A stretch of 61,950 nucleotides of DNA, the filler included. It is 3 parts of 3 records of this genome, joined end to end, with 100 filler letters (N's around TTAATTAATTAA, not from the genome) between each part and the next. Parts side by side here need not be neighbours in the genome. Positions count along the whole stretch, not along the records: positions 18,115 to 49,938 come from DRR723986_1339; 2 more parts are not named here. One strand, written 5' to 3'. Numbering within the stretch: the first letter of the stretch is position 1; the number at the start of each line of letters is the position of its first letter. The notes below the pieces were generated by a model. The model was not told the origin of the DNA and ran no database searches. It was given only the letters and a program-made list of their open reading frames with translations. This document shows positions 18,015 to 50,038 of the stretch, one piece after another. The translations under genes and the position numbers were made by a program.

Positions 18015-18114
18015 NNNNNNNNNNNNNNNNNNNNNNNNNNNNNNNNNNNNNNNNNNNNTTAATTAATTAANNNNNNNNNNNNNNNNNNNNNNNNNNNNNN
18101 NNNNNNNNNNNNNN
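18015..18114. other. Artificial contig-joining spacer
   Basis: N44-TTAATTAATTAA-N44 (stops in all six frames); flanking genes are truncated. Confidence 0.98.
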
Positions 18115-20253: not shown

Positions 20254-21552
20254 ATGCCCAACAGAACACTGACCTACGCACTGACCCTGCTGGTGCTGCT
20301 CTGCGCCAGGCCAAGCCTGGCCAGCAGCGGCGCGACGATAGCGGCCATCTATATCGATGACCAACCCCAGCAGAGCGTCACCGGCGTAACGGTGTCGGTG
20401 GGCAAGGAACGTATGAGTGGCCCGCTGAACCTGCAGCAGCCCATACCCTCCGGAGCACGCATCCAGACACCCCCGCGGGTCACCCTGGACCTGCTCACCC
20501 AGAACCAGAACAGCCTGCGGGTGGCGCCGAATTCCGATGTCCGCATTGGGGTAAGCGCCCAGGGCGAGAACCACTCGGTCAGCAGCGGCAGCCTGTTCGC
20601 CTGGGTGAAGACAAAGCTGGACTTCTTCAACATCAGCGACAGTAACGGCCGCTTCCAGGGGGCCGCAAAATCAACCGCCTATGGCGCTACTGTCGGTCGC
20701 GGCGGCATCAGTTTCACTACCAGCGAAGGCGTCATCCGGGTCAACCAGCAGGTGCCGGTCAGCGTCGCCGGTACCGCGGTCAAGACCAATGGGCGCAGCC
20801 CGCTGACAGTGACCCGCTCTTCCAGCCTGGCGGCTGACCAGGGCTCGCAATCCTTCGACTTCGAGGCCTTCCAGTCACAACCGCAGGACTTTGCCAGCTT
20901 CGATGACGCCACCGACAGCCTGCAACAGTGGATTGCCCAGGCAGAGGCCGCCCACGACTGGGAGGCGGCAGTCGACCTGTATTCCACCCTGGGAGGGATG
21001 TATCTCGACGAGGGCGAGGCAGACGAGGCGGTGAGCTACCTCAACCGGGCCCTGGAGATCAATTACACCAATGGTTCCGGCCTGCTTGACCCGAGTTTCT
21101 CGGAAGATCACACCTTGCTGGGCTATGCCTTCCTGGAGCTGGAGTGGCCCATCCTGGCGCTGCTCAATTTCCGCCGGGCAGAAGAAATCCTGCTGGAAAT
21201 CGATCCCTATAACCCTTTGCTTGCCGATTCATGGATCGACCAGGCCGAAGCACTGCAGCAACTGGGCGACGAGCAGAGCTCGGTTGAACTCGCGCTCCAG
21301 GCAGCGGAACTGCTGGGTTACCAGTTAGACGAGGACATGGCACTGCTGGACGAGTGGATGGAGTCGGATGATCTGGAAATGCAGTACCTGGCCATCGACT
21401 ATGCCTGGGAAGTCAGCGATCGCCTGATGAGTATGGGCTGGGCGCTCCAGTTTGCCCAGCAGCCCGCGGAAGCGGATGAGTTATTCGCTACCGCCGGGGA
21501 ACTGGAGGATTTCATCAGCGACTGGGAAGCAGAAGTCGATGCCTATCGCTAA
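20254..21552 (+). CDS. Exported protein with a FecR-like beta domain and a very acidic TPR-like C-terminus
   Basis: Signal peptide; FecR-pattern segment GARIQT...SLRVAPNSDVRI...AAKSTAYGATV...TTSEGVIRV; TPR-like helices (LYSTLGGMYLDEGEADEAVSYLNRALEI). Confidence 0.7.
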   Translation: MPNRTLTYALTLLVLLCARPSLASSGATIAAIYIDDQPQQSVTGVTVSVGKERMSGPLNLQQPIPSGARIQTPPRVTLDLLTQNQNSLRVAPNSDVRIGVSAQGENHSVSSGSLFAWVKTKLDFFNISDSNGRFQGAAKSTAYGATVGRGGISFTTSEGVIRVNQQVPVSVAGTAVKTNGRSPLTVTRSSSLAADQGSQSFDFEAFQSQPQDFASFDDATDSLQQWIAQAEAAHDWEAAVDLYSTLGGMYLDEGEADEAVSYLNRALEINYTNGSGLLDPSFSEDHTLLGYAFLELEWPILALLNFRRAEEILLEIDPYNPLLADSWIDQAEALQQLGDEQSSVELALQAAELLGYQLDEDMALLDEWMESDDLEMQYLAIDYAWEVSDRLMSMGWALQFAQQPAEADELFATAGELEDFISDWEAEVDAYR

Positions 21553-23173
21553 ACGACTGGCGGCGTATACCGCCATCTTCCTGGCCCTGCTGCTGCTCGT
21601 CGGGAGCCTGCTGGGCGCCGCCTGGCGCCCGCTTGATTACATCGTGTTCAAGGCGCTGGCGATCGGTGACTCCCCGCAGCTTGAAGACGACATCCGGATC
21701 ATTGACCTGCCCTACTACAAGGCCGGCTCCGGCTCCTTCGACCTGCCTGACTTCCGCGCCCGCACCGTTGACCTGCTGCAGCAGATCGGCGAGCTGAGCG
21801 CCAACTATGAGCGGCCACGCGCGGTAATTCTTGACCTCTACTACGGGAGCGACCAACGCCTTGTGCCGGAGCTATTGGCCGCCATCGCGGGGCTGCAGGA
21901 GAAAAAAATCCGGGTCTACGGCGTGTTCGACACCATGGGCCTGGCGGGCACCTCCTTTGAACAGCGCCGGGCGGATCACGCCATGGCAATCTACGAGCGC
22001 CTCGACGGCGGTCTGCTGCATACCCGGTTCGACCAGAAGCTGGGAGCCATCACCTACCGTTCCCATCTCGAGATACACTACGACCAGGAAGATATGCAGG
22101 CCAGGGTTATGGCGCTGCCTCTGCGCGTTGCCATGGATCTGAACCAGATCGAGGAACCTGACCCAGTGCGGGAGTATGTGCTGCCCCACGGTGACCAGGC
22201 CGATGTAACGAGCAAGACACTCCAGTTCACTCACCCGCAGGGCAGTACCAGCGGCGGCCGTTTCCTGCAGCAGGGGACCGAGCTGGCCGCGCCTGACATC
22301 CACGACAAGTTGCTGATCGTCGCCAGCTTCGAGGGCGACCGCGTGGTCCAGGGTCGACCCGGCCCCGAGCACCTTGCCTGGGCGCTGGATGACCAGCGCA
22401 ACGGCAACCGCAATGCGCGGATACCGATGAACCAGCCCCTGATTATCGTCGGCGTGGTGCTGTTTGTGGCCGCGTGGACCGCGCTGGTTTATGCCGTGCT
22501 GTTCAAATACGCCAAGTCCCTGCAGACCCGGCCTGGCGCACTGGCGTTACTGGCCCTGCTCGCCGGACTTGCTGCCATCGGTGGACTATCGGCCCTGGTG
22601 CTGATGATTGGCCAGGTGCTGCCAGTCGGCCTGGCGCTGTTCGCGGCGGCGCTGGCCGCAGCGGTGGCCTGGCACTTCGCCAATCGGTTCCTGGTGACCG
22701 GCGTGGCGGAAGGTTCCGGCAAGTACGACGTGTTTATCAGTTATTCACGCAAAGACGGCGACTGGGTCTACAACAGCCTGTACAAACCGCTGAGCGAGCT
22801 GCGCAAAGCCGATGGCTCGGCTCTGTCGATCTTCTTCGATCGCAACGAGATCAGCCTGGGGGAGGCTTTTACCTCGAAATATATGTGGGCGATCGTCGAT
22901 AGCCAGCATTTCATACCGGTATTCTCGGAAAACTATTACGGCACGCGTAGCCACGGCCGCAATGAAATGGACCTGGCCTACAAGCGCCATGTCGAAAAGA
23001 GTATCCGAATACTTCCAGTGGCTTTCTCCGATGACAGCGTGCCGGAGATTTACAATGGATTGAATTACCTGAACGTGACCACCGAGACCGAATTTTTCGC
23101 CGCGCTGGCAGCCGAACTGACCGCGCCGGAAGCGTCAGCCAGGGACGATTCGGATTCCGCAGGTAGCGCCTGA
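21539..23173 (+). CDS. CHASE2-like sensor - 3TM - TIR domain membrane receptor
   Basis: N-terminal TM, PLDY..F, IRIIDL, PRAVILDLYY, KLLIVAS, PGPEHLAWAL (CHASE2 pattern); three TMs; then YDVFISYSRKDGDWV...IFFDRNEISLGE...AIVDSQHFIPVFSENY...RNEMDLA...ILPV (TIR); overlaps the upstream gene by 14 nt. Confidence 0.85.
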   Translation: MPIAKRLAAYTAIFLALLLLVGSLLGAAWRPLDYIVFKALAIGDSPQLEDDIRIIDLPYYKAGSGSFDLPDFRARTVDLLQQIGELSANYERPRAVILDLYYGSDQRLVPELLAAIAGLQEKKIRVYGVFDTMGLAGTSFEQRRADHAMAIYERLDGGLLHTRFDQKLGAITYRSHLEIHYDQEDMQARVMALPLRVAMDLNQIEEPDPVREYVLPHGDQADVTSKTLQFTHPQGSTSGGRFLQQGTELAAPDIHDKLLIVASFEGDRVVQGRPGPEHLAWALDDQRNGNRNARIPMNQPLIIVGVVLFVAAWTALVYAVLFKYAKSLQTRPGALALLALLAGLAAIGGLSALVLMIGQVLPVGLALFAAALAAAVAWHFANRFLVTGVAEGSGKYDVFISYSRKDGDWVYNSLYKPLSELRKADGSALSIFFDRNEISLGEAFTSKYMWAIVDSQHFIPVFSENYYGTRSHGRNEMDLAYKRHVEKSIRILPVAFSDDSVPEIYNGLNYLNVTTETEFFAALAAELTAPEASARDDSDSAGSA

Positions 23174-23207: not shown

Positions 23208-23369
23208 TCAGGTCTGGGTACCGGGCGGTCCCGGGCGCTGGGTGCCGGGGGGTCCCGGACGCTGAGTCCCGGGCGGTCCCGGGCGTTGGGTGCCGGGGGG
23301 TCCCGGACGCTGGGTCCCGGGCGGTCCCGGACGTTCTGTACCTTCCTTTTCCTTGTCCTGGTCAGACAT
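23208..23369 (-). CDS. 53-aa tandem-repeat peptide MSDQDKEKEGTE(RPGPPGTQ)5T
   Basis: AGGAG 6 nt before the ATG at 23369; repeat units differ only at third codon positions. Confidence 0.8.
   Translation of the reverse strand: MSDQDKEKEGTERPGPPGTQRPGPPGTQRPGPPGTQRPGPPGTQRPGPPGTQT
23214..23333 (-). repeat. Five tandem 24-nt units encoding RPGPPGTQ
   Basis: Consensus CGY CCG GGA CCS CCC GGB ACY CAR; units alternate between two sub-types (48-nt higher-order period). Confidence 0.95.
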
Positions 23370-23422: not shown

Positions 23423-25420
23423 TCAATCTGGCACCGTGGCCAGGATCGCATCAAAGCGCGCGGGATCCAGCGCCCGGAGCTTGACCAGGTCAGGATCCTC
23501 GAGCAGGAGCTCCGCCGAGAAGCCCAGCGACCTTGCCTGTGCCAGCGCCACATAGGCCGACTCCGGGTTGGCCAGGGCCCAGTGCACCAGGGCGGCAAAG
23601 TAGTGCGAAGTCGGCGGCGAACTGCCGGTAGCGAGCATGCGCTGGGTATAGGCCAGCGCCTCCGACTCGTGCCCCGAGTACGCGTGGTACAAGCCGAGCA
23701 GGCCCAGCGTTTCCCAGTCGTTGGGGTTACGTGACAGGCGTTGTTCGGCGAGGGAGATGGCTTGGGCATAGTTGGCCAGTTCCTGCTCCCTGTCACCCAG
23801 CGCACGATAGCTCTCGGCGATCCGCCCCCAGACCCGATGATCATCGGCAATGTTGCCGGCGGCGGCCTCATGCATCGCCGCGGCCCGGGCATAGTTGCCC
23901 TGGTAGTAATACAGCAGCCCGAGGTTGGTGTAGCTGATACCGAGGGAGCCGATGCTGTCGGCGCCTGCCTGCTCTATCACCTGCATCCACACCTGCTCCG
24001 CCTCGGCTTCCCGGCCGAGCATGTACAGGGCTGAGCCCTGGCCGATGAGTGCGCTGAGCAGGTCAGGTACCTTCACCAGGACCTCGTCATAGGCAAGCCG
24101 GGCTTTGTCATACTGCGCGGCAGCTATATAGAAATTCGCCAGCACAAGCCGGGTTTCCCAGTTGCTTTCGTCAAGGGCGACCGCACGCTGGAGATAGTCC
24201 TCGGCCTCCTCGTAGCGCCCGGTATCACCATAGGTCTTGCCGATTTCCTGCAAGGTCCGCGGGCGATCAGGGTAGTCGCGGTCGGCGGCGAACAGGTAAT
24301 CCAGTGACTTGGCGTATTCTCCCGCCTCGCGGTAGAGCACGCCCAGGGCGATCTGCACATCCCAGCCCGGTATGCCTGACTCGGACTTCGCCAGCGCCCG
24401 GAGGCAGGCCCGTTCCGCCAGGCTAAATGCCTCAGCTTCCCGGCTGTGGCTGTACTGCGCCAGTTGCGCGTCGCAGATGCCGGCAAAGGCGTCGGCGTAG
24501 TCCGGGTCGATCTCAACCGCTTCGGTAAAAAATGCGACCGCCTCATCAAGAATCGCGTCATTCCACGGCAGGCGCAGCTGGGCGCGGCCCTTCAGGTAGG
24601 CGTTGTAGGCGTCAAAGTTGGTGGTCGATGGACCAAGGGGCAGCGCACCCTCCTCCATGATCATCGGACGAATCGCACGCACGACTGCTCCGGCGATCTG
24701 GTCCTGCAGCGCGAATATGTCCTCCAGGGTGCCGTCATAGGTCTCCGACCAGAGGTGGTAGCCGTTGCTGGTATCGATCAACTGGGCGGTGACCCGCACG
24801 GCATCGCCGGTTTTGCGGACACTGCCCTCCAGCAGGGTCGCTACGCCCAGCGAGCGCCCGATAGCCATCACATCCTCGGTGGTGTCGCGAAAATGAAACG
24901 ACGAGGTTCTGGCGGCGACACGCAGGCCTTCAACCTGGGCCAGCACATTGAGCAGTTCTTCGGAAATACCATCACTGAAATAGGCATTGTCCGGGTCGCT
25001 GCTCATATTGGCGAAGGGCAGCACCGCAATCGACTGCGCCTGCGGATCGTCGACCGCCCAGGGAATCGTGCCGCGCTGCAGGTATAAACGTTCGTAATAG
25101 AGGTAACCAACCATCAGTACCAGGGTGCAGATCAGCACGAACTGCAAGGCATGGGCAGTGGATATCCTCGGCGGCGCGGCTTGTGCTTCCGGTGAGGGAA
25201 TAAGCCCCTCAGACGAGAGGTCAAAAACCCAGGACAGGAGCATGGCCACCGGGAAACCGCCAGCCATAATGTAGAGCATCAGGCGCATGGACCATTCAGG
25301 CAGCCCCATGATAGGCAGCATGATGTCGGCGACCTGAAGCACGGCCCAGGCCGCCGCCGCATAGGCGAAGGCAACCCTGAATACCTTACGGCGCTTCAGT
25401 TCGGCGATAAACGCCTGCAT
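23423..25420 (-). CDS. Membrane-anchored TolB-like(N)/TPR protein
   Basis: ELKRRKVFRVAFAY plus 3 TMs, SIAVLPFANMSSDPDNAYFSDGISEELLN, LEGSVRK, HLWSETYD, then multiple TPRs. Confidence 0.88.
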   Translation of the reverse strand: MQAFIAELKRRKVFRVAFAYAAAAWAVLQVADIMLPIMGLPEWSMRLMLYIMAGGFPVAMLLSWVFDLSSEGLIPSPEAQAAPPRISTAHALQFVLICTLVLMVGYLYYERLYLQRGTIPWAVDDPQAQSIAVLPFANMSSDPDNAYFSDGISEELLNVLAQVEGLRVAARTSSFHFRDTTEDVMAIGRSLGVATLLEGSVRKTGDAVRVTAQLIDTSNGYHLWSETYDGTLEDIFALQDQIAGAVVRAIRPMIMEEGALPLGPSTTNFDAYNAYLKGRAQLRLPWNDAILDEAVAFFTEAVEIDPDYADAFAGICDAQLAQYSHSREAEAFSLAERACLRALAKSESGIPGWDVQIALGVLYREAGEYAKSLDYLFAADRDYPDRPRTLQEIGKTYGDTGRYEEAEDYLQRAVALDESNWETRLVLANFYIAAAQYDKARLAYDEVLVKVPDLLSALIGQGSALYMLGREAEAEQVWMQVIEQAGADSIGSLGISYTNLGLLYYYQGNYARAAAMHEAAAGNIADDHRVWGRIAESYRALGDREQELANYAQAISLAEQRLSRNPNDWETLGLLGLYHAYSGHESEALAYTQRMLATGSSPPTSHYFAALVHWALANPESAYVALAQARSLGFSAELLLEDPDLVKLRALDPARFDAILATVPD

Positions 25421-25520
25421 AGAGATTGGCTCTTGTGCTGAATCCGGCCTGACTATAGCACCTCCCCGATGCAGCCTGAACTGAAATGCGCCTGCGGCAG
25501 GCTTGTTCCATGCGTTGCAA

Positions 25521-25548
25521 TTGCTATTCGGAACGGCTGCTCTATGAT
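25521..25548 (+). promoter_or_regulatory. Putative sigma70 promoter of the caspase operon
   Basis: TTGCTA-N16-TATGAT about 40 nt upstream of ATG 25589. Confidence 0.4.
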
Positions 25549-25588
25549 TAGGGAACACTATTAGCTGAACGGCATTGATACCCGCCCG

Positions 25589-26548
25589 ATGAATAAGCGA
25601 GCACTACTGGTCGGCATCCAGGACTACGATTACGCACCGCAGCTTTTCTGCTGCGCCGAAGACGCCCGGGCAATGGCCGATGTCCTCGGACGCCACGCTG
25701 ACGGCGCGCTCAATTACGAATGCCTGGCCCTGACCAGTGATCAGGGACGAATCACCGAGGCCGAACTGCGCGGCAAGGTACGCGAGCTGTTTGCCGACGT
25801 GGCCGGCGGCGAGGTGATCTTCTACTTTTCGGGGCACGGGGTCATAACCGATACCGGCGGCTACCTGGTAACCCAGGACGGCCAGGTAAATGACCAGGGT
25901 TACCCGATGTCCGAACTGCTGCAGATCGCAAACCGCAGCGGCGTTGGCTCGGTCCTGCTGATTCTCGACTGCTGCCATAGCGGCAGTATCGGTGGTAGCG
26001 GTGCAGACCCTTACCAGAACCAGGTGCTGCTCAGCGAGGGCGTCACCATCCTGGCCGCCTCATCACCGCAACAGGAATCCCGCGAGGGTCTGGAGCACAG
26101 CCTGTTCACTGAACTGGTGCTGGACGCGCTCAATGGTGGCGCCGCTGATATCCGGGGCAATGTGTCCGCGGCCTCTTTGTACGGCTATGTAGAGCAGTCT
26201 CTGGGGGCCTGGCAGCAGCGCCCCATGTACAAGTCCAACGCGCGCAGGCTGAACCCGATCAGACACTGCGAACCGGCGGTACCTGACCAGTTGCTGCGCC
26301 AGCTGCCGACACTGTTCACCTCGCCGCAACTGGCCATTGCGCTCGACCCGGGCTTTGAACACACCGATCCCAGTGCCGAGGCGGAAAAGGTCGCAATGTT
26401 CGACCAGTTCAAGGCCCTGCGCAACGCACGCCTGCTGGAGACGGCCGGCGGCGAAGACCTGTACTACGCTGCCATGCGCGGCGGCTCAGTCAAACTCACA
26501 CCGCTGGGACGATTTTACTGGCAGCTGGTAAAGAACCGGCGGATATAG
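25589..26548 (+). CDS. Caspase-like cysteine protease (peptidase C14) with a C-terminal accessory domain
   Basis: RALLVGI, FYFSGHG (His), ILDCCHSG (Cys), TILAAS, SLFT..LDALNGGAAD; C-tail LDPGFE...YYAAMRGGSVKLTPLGRFYWQLVKNRRI. Confidence 0.93.
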   Translation: MNKRALLVGIQDYDYAPQLFCCAEDARAMADVLGRHADGALNYECLALTSDQGRITEAELRGKVRELFADVAGGEVIFYFSGHGVITDTGGYLVTQDGQVNDQGYPMSELLQIANRSGVGSVLLILDCCHSGSIGGSGADPYQNQVLLSEGVTILAASSPQQESREGLEHSLFTELVLDALNGGAADIRGNVSAASLYGYVEQSLGAWQQRPMYKSNARRLNPIRHCEPAVPDQLLRQLPTLFTSPQLAIALDPGFEHTDPSAEAEKVAMFDQFKALRNARLLETAGGEDLYYAAMRGGSVKLTPLGRFYWQLVKNRRI

Positions 26549-26557
26549 GAGCGTTAC

Positions 26558-27076
26558 ATGTCGGACTCCGATACTTCCAGGGCCGTGCGGCCAGACGAAT
26601 ACGGGGACAGTTACCGGGCGGACTTCCTTACCATGTACCATGAGTACGTGGCGTCTGCCGACCGGATTTCAGAGCGCAGGACCGCCGCCAATACTTTCTT
26701 TGTCAGCGCCAACGCGGCGCTTCTCGGCCTCAACGGCTACTTCCTGCAGAAAGACGGGGAGCCTTCCCTGCTGATCAACGATGCCCTGTGGGTACCCGCA
26801 GTAGCGGCCATCCTCATGTGCTGGATCTGGCGCGGCCTGATTTCATCCTACAAAAGCCTTAACGGCGCCAAGTTCGGGGTCATCCTGGCCATGGAGCGCC
26901 AGCTTCCCGCGGCACCGTATACGGACGAGTGGGCAAACCTGCAGGACAGCCAGCGCAGCAGCAAACACATTCCGCTCAGTGATTCGGAGAAGTACGTGCC
27001 CATGGTCTTCATGATCGTCAACGTGGGTATCTTCACCCTGAGCTTTACCAATTTCATTCTTGGCAAGGTCAGCTAG
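26558..27076 (+). CDS. RipA-like small oligomeric membrane protein (2 core TMs plus a hydrophobic C-tail)
   Basis: Y..YV.SADRISERR..AN.FFVS.N, W...I.SY..LN.AKF.VI..ME.QLP..PY..EW pattern, recalled from Francisella RipA-like proteins; GGAG RBS. Confidence 0.7.
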   Translation: MSDSDTSRAVRPDEYGDSYRADFLTMYHEYVASADRISERRTAANTFFVSANAALLGLNGYFLQKDGEPSLLINDALWVPAVAAILMCWIWRGLISSYKSLNGAKFGVILAMERQLPAAPYTDEWANLQDSQRSSKHIPLSDSEKYVPMVFMIVNVGIFTLSFTNFILGKVS

Positions 27077-27085
27077 GAGATCAGT

Positions 27086-27931
27086 ATGCCCAGGGGCTTA
27101 TCCCTACATATCGGAGTCAACGTCTGCGACCCGGATCACTACGGCGGCTGGTCCGGCCCGCTGGAATGTTGCGAAGCGGATGCGGACGCCATTCACGGCC
27201 TGGCCGTGGAAGCCGGATTCGAACCGACGGTGCTGAAGACGGCACAGGCCACGCGTACTGCCGTGGCCGATGCCATCAGCTCGGCGGCTGCCACCTGTGA
27301 GGCCGGCGACTTCTTGCTGGTGAGCTACGCGGGGCACGGTGGCCAGATTGCCGACGTCGATGGCGATGAGAGCGACCAGATCGACGAGACCTGGTGCCTG
27401 TACGACGGCCAGTTACTCGACGACGAACTGAACGTCCTATGGGCAAAATTCCATGCGGGCGTGCGTATCCTGGTGCTGTCAGACAGTTGTCATAGCGGCT
27501 CGGTAACCAAGAGCGTCGCCAGCCGGCGCGGGGCGATGGGCGCTCGCAACGCCCTGTTCTCCGGGACAGCGCCACAGGCGGCGGGAAAGGCCCGCTTCAT
27601 GCCCCGACAGGCCGCGGCAGCGACCCAGCGCAAGAACCGTGATTTTTACGCCGGGCTGCAGACCTCCCTCCCCAACCCGCGACCGGCGATCAAGGCCAGC
27701 GTCAGGCTGCTCTCGGGCTGCCAGGATAACCAGCTCTCCACCGAACTGGACGGCAACGGGGTCTTTACCCGCAATGTGCTGCGGGTATGGGACAAGGGTA
27801 ACTTCCAGGGCGACTATCGGGAATTTCACCGCGCTGTTATCACCAATATGCACGAAAGCCAGCAACCCAATCACCTGGTGATTGGCGGTGAAAATTCCGA
27901 GTTCGACGCTCAGCGACCGTTTTCCATCTGA
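27086..27931 (+). CDS. Metacaspase-like peptidase C14
   Basis: SYAGHGGQ, DGDESDQIDETWCLYD..LLDDEL, LSDSCHSGS, LLSGCQDNQLS, GVFT, QQPN. Confidence 0.93.
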   Translation: MPRGLSLHIGVNVCDPDHYGGWSGPLECCEADADAIHGLAVEAGFEPTVLKTAQATRTAVADAISSAAATCEAGDFLLVSYAGHGGQIADVDGDESDQIDETWCLYDGQLLDDELNVLWAKFHAGVRILVLSDSCHSGSVTKSVASRRGAMGARNALFSGTAPQAAGKARFMPRQAAAATQRKNRDFYAGLQTSLPNPRPAIKASVRLLSGCQDNQLSTELDGNGVFTRNVLRVWDKGNFQGDYREFHRAVITNMHESQQPNHLVIGGENSEFDAQRPFSI

Positions 27932-49938: not shown

Positions 49939-50038
49939 NNNNNNNNNNNNNNNNNNNNNNNNNNNNNNNNNNNNNNNNNNNNTTAATTAATTAANNNNNN
50001 NNNNNNNNNNNNNNNNNNNNNNNNNNNNNNNNNNNNNN
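49939..50038. other. Artificial contig-joining spacer
   Basis: N44-TTAATTAATTAA-N44. Confidence 0.98.

Follow-up and report, generated by a model that had tools for sequence, protein, structure and literature searches.

Within a 61,950-nucleotide stretch of DNA (the window), we found two overlapping genes on the plus strand that are best explained as a two-gene sensory module with coupled translation. The upstream gene (20254-21552) encodes a 432-residue protein, here called the partner, that is secreted and has a predicted FecR-type fold and TPR repeats; the downstream gene (21539-23173) encodes a 544-residue receptor in which a CHASE2-like ectodomain and four transmembrane (TM) helices in total are joined to a cytoplasmic TIR domain. 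We propose that the partner relays a cue from the cell envelope to the receptor, which would in turn switch on NAD+ cleavage by the TIR domain, and we assign this reading a probability of roughly 0.55.

The receptor open reading frame is unbroken from an ATG at 21539 through 23173, and all of the features described below lie on the plus strand. The assigned start agrees with the N-termini of the relatives in the alignment (M-x-T-L-K-R-L) and overlaps the TAA of the upstream gene (21550-21552) by 14 nt. A short cytoplasmic N-terminus bearing Lys/Arg precedes the first TM helix (residues ~2-32; 21542-21634), which is followed by an extracytoplasmic CHASE2-like domain of approximately 260 amino acids (residues ~33-292; 21635-22414), supported by conservation and by the CHASE2 evidence presented below, and then by three TM helices (residues ~293-381; 22415-22681). 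Hydropathy analysis yielded hydrophobic stretches at residues 2-32, 293-325, and 332-381, the last of which comprises two helices, and the AlphaFold2 model (mean pLDDT 90.5) placed helices at 2-41, 300-324, 332-356, and 364-386. From the two together we assign one N-terminal TM helix and three TM helices ahead of the TIR domain; the three helices called in the initial annotation were therefore recovered, and an N-terminal one was added. A juxtamembrane linker (F-L-V-T-G-V-A-E-G-S-G-K; 22682-22720), in which the columns F384, L385, G388, A390, E391, and G392 are nearly invariant across the family alignment, leads into the TIR domain (residues ~395-530; 22721-23128, supported by Pfam, fold, and profile alignment). 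The gap between the last TM helix and the TIR domain is only about 12 residues, in keeping with the earlier description of a TIR domain directly behind the membrane. These observations confirm that the receptor combines an extracytoplasmic sensor domain with an inward-facing TIR domain.

The receptor had initially been presented as a Toll-like unit in its own right. Its architecture stands, but the secreted partner had been overlooked, and the unit is a two-gene operon. The partner carries a signal peptide (helix 4-17); a FecR-fold domain rich in beta structure occupies residues ~26-213, and the C-terminal half (216-431) is entirely helical and TPR-like. TPR matches were obtained in Pfam, and residues 165-430 matched TPR proteins in the fold search. 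In the AlphaFold2 model of the partner (pLDDT 77.3), residues 65-207 matched the C-terminal signalling domain (CCSSD) of PupR (Z 13.9, rmsd 2.5, 122 residues aligned); the anti-sigma factor BDI_1681 was also matched (Z 12.7), and Foldseek returned 6ovk_R (E 1.2e-3). Pfam FecR (PF04773) did not match the window's own copy of the partner and was found in one of 20 members of the partner family (3.7e-8); judging from the model, we assign the partner a FecR-domain fold. The pairing is conserved: a partner homologue (BLASTP E < 1e-5) on the same strand immediately precedes the TIR gene in at least 26 of 32 loci, and in L016, L019, and L024 an ORF of 379-405 amino acids that can be aligned with the partner family occupies the partner position.

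The architecture and topology of the receptor, together with an invariant Glu residue in its TIR domain, suit a TIR enzyme controlled by an extracytoplasmic sensor. In the pathway that we propose, the partner would be exported to the periplasm, where it would present its FecR-fold domain and TPR repeats, and the receptor would sit in the inner membrane with an N-in TM helix, a divergent CHASE2-type domain, three TM helices, the rigidly conserved linker, and the cytoplasmic TIR domain. An extracytoplasmic signal is probably captured first by the partner and would then be handed on, by contact, to the CHASE2 domain; by analogy with other FecR/CHASE2 pairs, a macromolecule or some envelope state is the probable cue. 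Rearrangement of the TM bundle, or clustering, could then gather the TIR domains, which would cleave NAD+ by means of Glu476, and the loss of NAD+ may lead to growth arrest or cell death, as is the case for self-contained TIR effectors. A signal derived from ADP-ribose would be an alternative output; because we found no third gene conserved with the receptor-partner pair, NAD+ loss itself is the simplest one. It is a more tentative suggestion, and one that we hold with considerably less confidence, that the periplasmic FecR/TPR co-receptor senses a foreign or damage-associated macromolecule (candidates being a phage, a competitor's protein, or a wall fragment) and that the CHASE2 receptor responds by firing its tethered TIR NADase.

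The presence of a cytoplasmic TIR domain, as called initially, was upheld by two measures: Pfam TIR_2 (PF13676) matched residues 398-523 (E 2.9e-14; 54 bits, with a cut-off of 28), and the best fold match of the AlphaFold2 model was the TIR domain of Hydra TRR-2 (Z 17.6, rmsd 2.0, 124 residues aligned). Foldseek searches with the receptor model gave 24 matches at E <= 0.001, of which the top ones were TIR domains (TIR match E 5.3e-6) and one lower row was not; the whole 544-residue model matched TIR domains and TM helices only. The motif S-H-G-R-N-E-M-D-L includes H-G-R-N-E (22952-22966), the counterpart of the TIR W-x-x-x-E, and carries E476 at 22964-22966. In a family profile search E476 aligned with the Glu of the AbTIR W-x-x-x-E (8g83, E 1.6e-6), and it also falls on the N-E-L Glu of the SNC1 TIR domain. 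It is invariant in all 173 full-length relatives, which sustains the original claim that the catalytic-position Glu is retained. The Trp of the motif is absent from the receptor, where H472 and G473 occupy the usual Trp and Cys sites, again as first described; among the 173 relatives, position 472 is His in 124, Phe in 18, Tyr in 18, and Trp in 3, and position 473 is Cys in 152 and Gly, the residue of the window copy, in 4. S401 and Y402 are as invariant as E476 across these relatives, and D397, F399, and D434 are nearly so, a pattern that would be expected of an enzyme pocket. In AbTir, whose E208 and W204 are described in PMC10641520, the E208A variant is reported there to be inactive. The receptor TIR domain probably cleaves NAD+.

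Which product would follow from such cleavage is a separate matter. AbTir is listed among the TIR enzymes that make isomers of cyclic ADP-ribose (cADPR), and the Trp of its WxxxE motif has been linked to cADPR production (PMC10641520); because this Trp is His in most members of the present family (124/173), a cyclic-ADPR messenger is less certain here than plain NAD+ cleavage. We think it improbable that the TIR domain produces a nucleotide of the cyclic-ADPR type, or another one derived from ADPR, that is read by a receptor encoded elsewhere, with a regulatory rather than a suicidal effect. The TIR domain would then take the place of the cyclase in ordinary CHASE2 receptors, and the outputs of CHASE2 proteins described in PMC5192318, PMC9239204, and PMC13001267 are indeed second-messenger cyclases and kinases, as stated in the initial annotation. 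The genomic setting would also suit such a role, in that the neighbours of most related loci are unremarkable (rpsI/rplM, polA, ndk, a class II tRNA-synthetase core fragment) and the flanks look stably, and seemingly vertically, inherited within genera (Aequorivita, Kriegella); this setting is as compatible with a physiological sensor as with a defence gene. Against a messenger, however, no gene for a SLOG, Macro, SAVED, or SIR2-SLOG receptor is conserved beside the pair across the 27 scanned loci or in the window. The effector expected alongside the TIR gene in Thoeris, a ThsA-type protein (a SIR2, Macro, or TM domain with SLOG), was likewise absent from the neighbouring window genes scanned on both sides and is not conserved across the 27 loci.

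Conflict-type domains (TIR, SIR2-TIR, CHAT, SLATT, STAND NTPase, caspase) neighbour the pair in five of the 27 loci scanned, with SIR2-TIR fusions confined to L004 and L017, and the remaining 22 have no such neighbour. The window itself carries two caspase genes 2.4-3.9 kb downstream of the receptor; a small ORF behind the caspase in L032 was considered as an 8xMP homologue and rejected. PADLOC matched at the level of the TIR domain only (candidate PDC-S66, 6.9e-8), the TIR matches from NCBIfam (retron-TIR, FxsC, and ThcB4) stayed below threshold, and neither source matched a known defence system as a whole. None of 15 pattern matches came from a viral contig, no relatives were found on plasmids, and a search of sequencing runs listed no RNA run carrying the window sequence. 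Four DNA runs, all from a single marine-plankton study, contained at least half of the sampled sequence words and may include the source. One search gave 123 family representatives after clustering at 50% identity, and the Atlas clusters of the family hold 80-108 members. Databases annotate these proteins merely as "TIR domain-containing", and our literature search found no paper describing a CHASE2-TIR protein. The long variants (675-737 aa) were considered for an extra domain, which was rejected, as their tails are Lys/Glu-rich low complexity. TIR_2 is present in 73 of the 82 distant N-domain relatives that were scanned, and in one other its place is taken by a Schlafen AlbA_2 domain. This subfamily of N-terminal domains therefore appears to be tied to TIR output, and the Schlafen variant, like the published caspase-CHASE2 fusions (PMC8195603), would fit an output of the effector type.

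The fold rankings raise the prospect of a TIR domain without enzymatic activity, one that would recruit other TIR proteins by TIR-TIR contacts in the manner of TLR and MyD88. The nearest solved folds are those of receptor and adaptor TIRs (TRR-2, IL-1RAcPb, TIRAP/MAL, MyD88; Z 16-17.6), which outrank the enzymes SARM1 (Z 14.9) and AbTIR (Z 10.2), the motif Trp is missing, and in the Kriegella loci L001 and L003 separate TIR-only and pYEATS-TIR genes stand just upstream. A scaffold nevertheless seems to us quite unlikely, given that all 173 relatives retain the Glu, along with pocket-type residues, that separate TIR genes adjoin the pair in only four of the 27 loci scanned (L001, L003, L004, and L017), and that no further TIR gene was found within approximately 4 kb downstream in the window.

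Assigning the ectodomain to CHASE2 required several lines of evidence. PF05226 (CHASE2) did not match the window receptor even at E <= 10 with the N-terminal part alone, and profile comparisons with canonical CHASE2 domains were weak: the family HMM missed three canonical CHASE2 proteins (E 0.95), and hhalign placed R73/D99 on R89/D110, which are invariant in those three proteins, with an E of 0.0021 but a probability of only 13.6%. A canonical CHASE2 profile had no matching chain among solved structures. The missing Pfam match and the weak profile comparisons, together with a near-invariant set of polar residues (of 173 relatives, D33 in 167, R73 in 171, D99 in 171, Y152 in 171, H161 in 170, and D267 in 169), could point to a periplasmic module with no relation to CHASE2, perhaps an enzyme, with the TIR domain reporting an event other than ligand binding. 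We consider this doubtful, because half of the aligned relatives (24 of 48) do match PF05226 at E <= 0.01 (best 1.2e-8), and of the 82 distant relatives 10 match at E <= 0.001 and five exceed the gathering score of 26.3 bits, with matches that span profile positions ~5-250 of 257. In the ESM-Atlas, 29 of the 30 named clusters found with the N-terminal part of the window protein are CHASE2 (score 0.94), and in a neighbouring cluster CHASE2 and TIR_2 each occur on 99% of the 80 members (score 0.95). The order of one TM helix, an extracytoplasmic domain, and three TM helices, as given by hydropathy and the model, is also the topology described for a CHASE2 kinase (PMC5192318), and a FecR partner is present, in line with reports that FecR-domain and TPR proteins cluster with CHASE2 cyclases and kinases (PMC9239204, PMC5192318). 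We accordingly describe the ectodomain as CHASE2-like and as a divergent subfamily, with membership short of proven; the initial CHASE2 call is thus supported by the relatives, the Atlas, and the topology, but not by a Pfam match in the window protein itself.

That the window copy is a decaying or inactive acquisition is very improbable: Gly473 is atypical and only two close relatives were found (84% and 61% identity), but neither ORF is interrupted, the stop of the first is coupled to the start of the second, and every other invariant residue is retained.

The window consists of three contigs joined by artificial linkers, and the receptor is on the middle one, which looks Halieaceae-like. The GcvP encoded there is 83-86% identical to Halieaceae proteins and 60-61% identical to those of the kin of genome G001, and in two draws of 401 genomes, one at class and one at phylum level, identity did not exceed 67%. 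The first contig (1-18014) is 98% identical to G001, and nothing past 18014 matches that genome; a genomic-island edge at this position was considered and rejected, as the artificial linker N44-TTAATTAATTAA-N44 there marks the contig end. Neither G001 nor 61 of its relatives yielded P0001 (positive control 3/3), but this absence says nothing about the lineage of the receptor, because the middle-contig GcvP points to Halieaceae.

To our knowledge, all known bacterial TIR enzymes are triggered from inside the cell; a TIR domain coupled to an extracytoplasmic sensor would extend TIR biology to sensing at the cell surface and give a bacterial parallel to the layout of Toll-like receptors. An outside-in pathway, if true, would be a prokaryotic functional counterpart of those receptors and the first CHASE2 system with an enzymatically readable activation. 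The ligands of CHASE2 domains are described as largely unknown (PMC5192318), and for the rhizobial cyclases the reported signal is described only as a protein (PMC13001267). A CHASE2 receptor with NAD+ cleavage as its output, six near-invariant residues in the ectodomain, and a dedicated FecR/TPR partner would offer a compact system for finding a CHASE2 cue.

Metazoan Toll-like and Toll-related receptors such as Hydra TRR-2 have the same arrangement of ectodomain, membrane, and cytoplasmic TIR domain as the receptor described here, whereas the latter has a CHASE2-like rather than an LRR ectodomain, four TM helices rather than one, and an identity of 24%; the resemblance is one of layout and is not evidence of descent. 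AbTir, SARM1, ThsB (Thoeris), TIR-STING, SPARTA, and Cat1 share with the receptor the TIR fold and the Glu of the catalytic motif. These NAD+ hydrolases are soluble and triggered by cytoplasmic cues; the receptor, in contrast, is an integral membrane protein with an extracytoplasmic sensor, has His for the motif Trp, and is not linked to a ThsA-type gene.

Among CHASE2 systems, CyaD1, CyaD2, and CyaK of Sinorhizobium meliloti are likewise inner-membrane CHASE2 receptors fed by a separate envelope protein, NsrA (PMC13001267, PMC7529298). A protein signal is relayed by NsrA, in the outer membrane, to these CHASE2 cyclases (PMC13001267), whose output is that of an adenylate/guanylate cyclase where ours is a TIR domain (PMC13001267, PMC7529298). 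NsrA is described as a beta-barrel outer-membrane protein of ~1200 aa (PMC7529298), whereas our 432-residue partner is predicted to be soluble; we found no beta-barrel of the NsrA type in its model, in which residues 216-431, the C-terminal half, are all helical. The EACC2-caspase with a C-terminal CHASE2 domain (Kaur, Burroughs, Iyer, Aravind 2021; PMC8195603) similarly couples CHASE2 to a death or immunity effector, but there a caspase, placed N-terminal to CHASE2, serves as the effector, and the available text of that report does not name TIR as a CHASE2 partner. In gene content, the Burkholderia 'BiofilmReg' operon of a LysM/FecR protein and a CHASE2 histidine kinase (PMC5192318) and a Campylobacterota cluster of a CHASE2 adenylate cyclase, a FecR-domain protein, and a TPR protein (PMC9239204) share with the present pair a secreted FecR-domain protein, with TPR, next to a TM-CHASE2-3TM receptor. 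These clusters have a kinase or cyclase as output, whereas the module described here lacks LysM, fuses FecR and TPR in a single partner, and ends in a TIR domain.

The receptor gene (21539-23173, plus strand) coincides exactly with one intact ORF of 544 amino acids. Judged from sequence, the ATG at 21539 is likely its start, and relatives share this position in the alignment. The start overlaps the stop codon of the upstream partner gene (TAA, 21550-21552) by 14 nt, with GGAAG approximately 9 nt 5' of the ATG, an arrangement from which we infer that the two genes are translationally coupled. The initial annotation had proposed a CHASE2 ectodomain, three transmembrane helices, and a cytoplasmic TIR domain that keeps its catalytic glutamate. 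The three helices ahead of the TIR domain were recovered at residues 300-324, 332-356 and 364-386 of an AlphaFold2 model built on 48 relatives (mean pLDDT 90.5), in line with hydropathic segments at 293-325 and 332-381; a further hydropathic segment (2-32) and model helix (2-41) lie at the N-terminus, which carries K5 and R6. These two residues, together with the transmembrane segments, predict that residues ~33-292 are extracellular and that the TIR domain is intracellular. A linker conserved in the alignment of relatives, F-L-V-T-G-V-A-E-G-S-x-K-Y-D, connects the last transmembrane helix to the first TIR strand.

The TIR assignment holds: residues 398-523 match Pfam TIR_2 (54 bits, where the cut-off is 28; E 2.9e-14), and model residues 393-534 superimpose on the TIR domain of Hydra TRR-2 (Z 17.6, rmsd 2.0, 124 aligned). 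The model also resembles IL-1RAcPb, TIRAP/MAL and MyD88 (Z 16.0-16.3), SARM1 (14.9), Cat1 (12.9), ThsB (11.9) and AbTIR (10.2), and Foldseek concurs with the TIR fold. The glutamate motif of the receptor reads S-H-G-R-N-E-M-D-L. In the family profile, H-C-R-N-E aligns to W-T-N-Y-E of the NAD+ hydrolase AbTIR (8g83, E 1.6e-6) and to the equivalent motifs in 7uxr, TLR15 and BtpA; with the receptor sequence alone, N-E-M aligns to N-E-L of SNC1. According to the excerpted text of PMC10641520, the AbTir motif contains E208, and the E208A mutant is inactive. Conservation was scored over 173 full-length relatives, which are all collected proteins of 480-760 aa, leaving out P0161 and P0214 (without TIR) and P0222 (a low-complexity false match). 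The motif glutamate, E476, is invariant (173/173), which together with the profile alignment upholds its proposed retention at the catalytic position; S401 and Y402 are likewise invariant, and D397 (170/173), F399 (171/173) and D434 (169/173) are nearly so. At the tryptophan position of the motif, His predominates (124 relatives), Phe and Tyr account for 18 each, and Trp itself is found in 3; Gly473 of the window receptor is a minority state, with Cys in 152/173 relatives and Gly in 4/173.

The partner gene (20254-21552, plus strand), which the initial annotation had missed, encodes 432 aa, in which a signal peptide is followed by a beta-rich half and then by a helical half where the TPR matches fall. 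We surveyed the 32 listed loci from species-representative genomes with a full-length receptor relative; at 26 of them a partner homologue (BLASTP E < 1e-5) immediately precedes the receptor gene in the same orientation. At L016, L019 and L024 an ORF of 379-405 aa, alignable along its length, occupies the partner position; L027 and L028 are cut on the partner side, and L032 is without a partner gene. Pfam FecR matched one of 20 partner members (3.7e-8) and did not match the window partner. In the partner model (pLDDT 77.3), residues 65-207 resemble the C-terminal cell-surface-signalling domain of PupR, a FecR-type anti-sigma regulator (Z 13.9, rmsd 2.5 over 122 aligned residues), and, at Z 12.7, the anti-sigma factor BDI_1681. 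For residues 165-430 the fold matches are TPR proteins, and the model contains no beta-barrel. The FecR identity of the partner is clearer from this predicted fold than from Pfam. In Chitinophagales and some Flavobacteriaceae, many partner homologues have a conserved G-C-x or x-C-x at the extreme C-terminus (last block of the partner alignment, A2); the window partner does not, and its residues 274-318 form instead a 45-residue insertion of low confidence.

The evidence on the CHASE2 identity of the ectodomain points both ways. The receptor has no PF05226 match, even at E <= 10 with the N-terminal part alone, and for three canonical CHASE2 proteins from G001, the genome matching the first contig, an HMM of the family N-terminal part gave E 0.95. 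The hhalign comparison with this trio was also weak (probability 13.6%, E 0.0021); in favour of CHASE2, its short alignment corresponds to the canonical CHASE2 core and places the family-invariant R73 and D99 on the trio-invariant R89 and D110. Also in favour, half of the 48 aligned relatives (24) match PF05226 at E <= 0.01, the best at 1.2e-8. A HMMER search with residues 1-394 over 1.84 billion representatives identified 123 proteins at E <= 0.001, and we scanned the 82 of at least 400 aa for domains: ten have a CHASE2 match at E <= 0.001, five (P0113, P0135, P0151, P0166, P0202) exceed the curated 26.3 bits, and the matches cover profile positions ~5-250 of 257. By ESM-Atlas features, residues 1-394 fall with clusters of which 29 of the 30 named carry CHASE2 (score 0.94, 202/256 features common). 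For the whole receptor, the nearest cluster is TIR, 10% of its members carrying CHASE2 (0.99), the second is TIR only (0.98), and the third, of 80 members, has CHASE2 on 99% and TIR_2 on 99% (0.95). The CHASE2 kinase topology printed in the excerpt of PMC5192318 is that of the window receptor. From the relatives' matches, core alignment, Atlas features, topology, and kind of partner gene, we take the ectodomain to be a divergent CHASE2-type domain, with a probability of roughly 85%. Sequence search found no solved CHASE2 structure. Six polar ectodomain residues are near-invariant among the 173 relatives (D33 in 167, R73 171, D99 171, Y152 171, H161 170, D267 169), a pattern of conservation that looks like a putative binding or catalytic site.

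TIR_2 is carried by 73 of the 82 scanned relatives. P0214 has a Schlafen AlbA_2 domain at the TIR position, an additional N-terminal TIR is present in P0199, P0145 is an OmpA-domain protein of 1430 aa, and four without any domain match may be truncated, because they are only 405-477 aa long. In P0091, P0124, P0149 and P0185 (~680-720 aa), the TIR domain is followed by highly charged, Lys/Glu-rich tails 150-190 residues long.

Two genes on each side of the pair were scanned at 27 of the 32 listed loci, that is, without L002, L010, L012 and L015 (ORF layout as L001/L009) and L022 (no flanks). Conflict-type neighbours occur at five: pYEATS-TIR and TIR at L001 and L003, with a CHAT/TPR-S giant additionally at L001; SLATT_1 and SIR2-TIR at L004; SIR2-TIR and nSTAND1 at L017; and a caspase directly downstream at L032. 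Ordinary genes surround the pair at the other 22, and among the neighbours at the 27 loci we found no further gene conserved alongside the two. At eight of the 27 (L005, L007, L009, L020, L021, L024, L026, L027) a neighbour carries Por_Secre_tail or CHU_C, sorting domains for type IX secretion, and peptidase neighbours occur at five loci (S9 at L019 and L030, M12B at L020, M28 at L021, M19 at L026); both may just be Bacteroidota gene content.

In the window, the next gene after the receptor is convergent with it and encodes a TPR membrane protein (23423-25558, minus strand). Three tightly packed plus-strand genes (25589-27931) likely form a conflict or cell-death cassette: two caspase genes flank one for an 8xMP octameric membrane protein (PF24838, 6.3e-32). 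The first caspase matches the NCBIfam EACC1-associated type at 103 bits, under its cut-off of 140, and shares 36% identity with the caspase adjoining the Gemmatimonadales relative, L032. Between the convergent TIR-gene and TPR-gene ends lies a 24-bp tandem repeat (23214-23335; 5 copies, 84% matches); translated from the minus strand, it gives repeated P-G-P-P-G-T-Q-R within an ORF of 72 aa.

The receptor gene is on the middle contig (18115-49938) of three connected by artificial linkers, N44-TTAATTAATTAA-N44, at 18015-18114 and 49939-50038. The middle-contig gcvP (18122-20173) lacks the first ~262 profile positions; genuine truncation was ruled out, as the contig start falls within the gene. 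Its product is 83-86% identical to Halieaceae proteins. The first contig (1-18014) has 98% identity to G001, but the window GcvP is just 60-61% identical to that of G001's kin, and thus the contigs may stem from different organisms. The third contig (50039-61950) has a GC content of 41-51%, versus ~60% elsewhere. The receptor was found in none of 61 relatives of G001, though these are kin of the first contig and have no bearing on the receptor gene's lineage. A search of 5.8 billion protein clusters found just two close receptor relatives (84% and 61% identity; all others <= 47%), and the best full-length match among those listed from a pattern-based scan of 185,579 species-representative genomes is 44% identical. 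There are at least 32 full-length loci, and those listed comprise 29 from Bacteroidota, 1 from Acidobacteriota, 1 from Gemmatimonadales and 1 without an assigned name; the Atlas clusters include Pseudomonadota members. The relative in an Acidobacteriota MAG (L014) is split across three frames (query residues 3-81, 89-287, 273-527), and is either a frameshifted or broken copy or the product of assembly errors.

What we observed directly is the architecture and the gene pairing. In the mechanism that we propose, the FecR/TPR partner would capture an envelope cue and pass it to the CHASE2 domain of the receptor, the transmembrane bundle and rigid linker would relay the signal inward, and the TIR domains would come together and cleave NAD+ via E476. 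A serious rival is that the TIR output is a regulatory messenger, a role in keeping with the many related loci in housekeeping contexts. We favour NAD+ depletion because no reader gene is linked to the pair, because a nucleic-acid-type domain can stand in for the TIR (P0214), because CHASE2 is known fused to caspases (excerpt of PMC8195603), and because the cADPR-linked Trp is absent; the excerpt of PMC10641520 describes AbTir W204 as important in cADPR production.

CHASE2-TIR proteins are present in public databases under generic names, and full-text literature searches on CHASE2 plus TIR and on membrane TIR found no description of the fusion; both terms occur in PMC8195603 (excerpt) and PMC3501461, not joined to each other. 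We see in the two genes a variant of the known CHASE2/FecR receptor pairs whose output would be a TIR enzyme. In Burkholderia, a LysM/FecR protein adjoins a CHASE2 histidine kinase (excerpt of PMC5192318); in Campylobacterota, a CHASE2 adenylate cyclase is clustered with a FecR-domain protein and a TPR protein (excerpt of PMC9239204); and the rhizobial CHASE2 cyclases CyaD1, CyaD2 and CyaK sense a plant protein via the outer-membrane protein NsrA (excerpts of PMC13001267 and PMC7529298). A FecR-type partner, as in the window pair, is common to the Burkholderia and Campylobacterota sensors.
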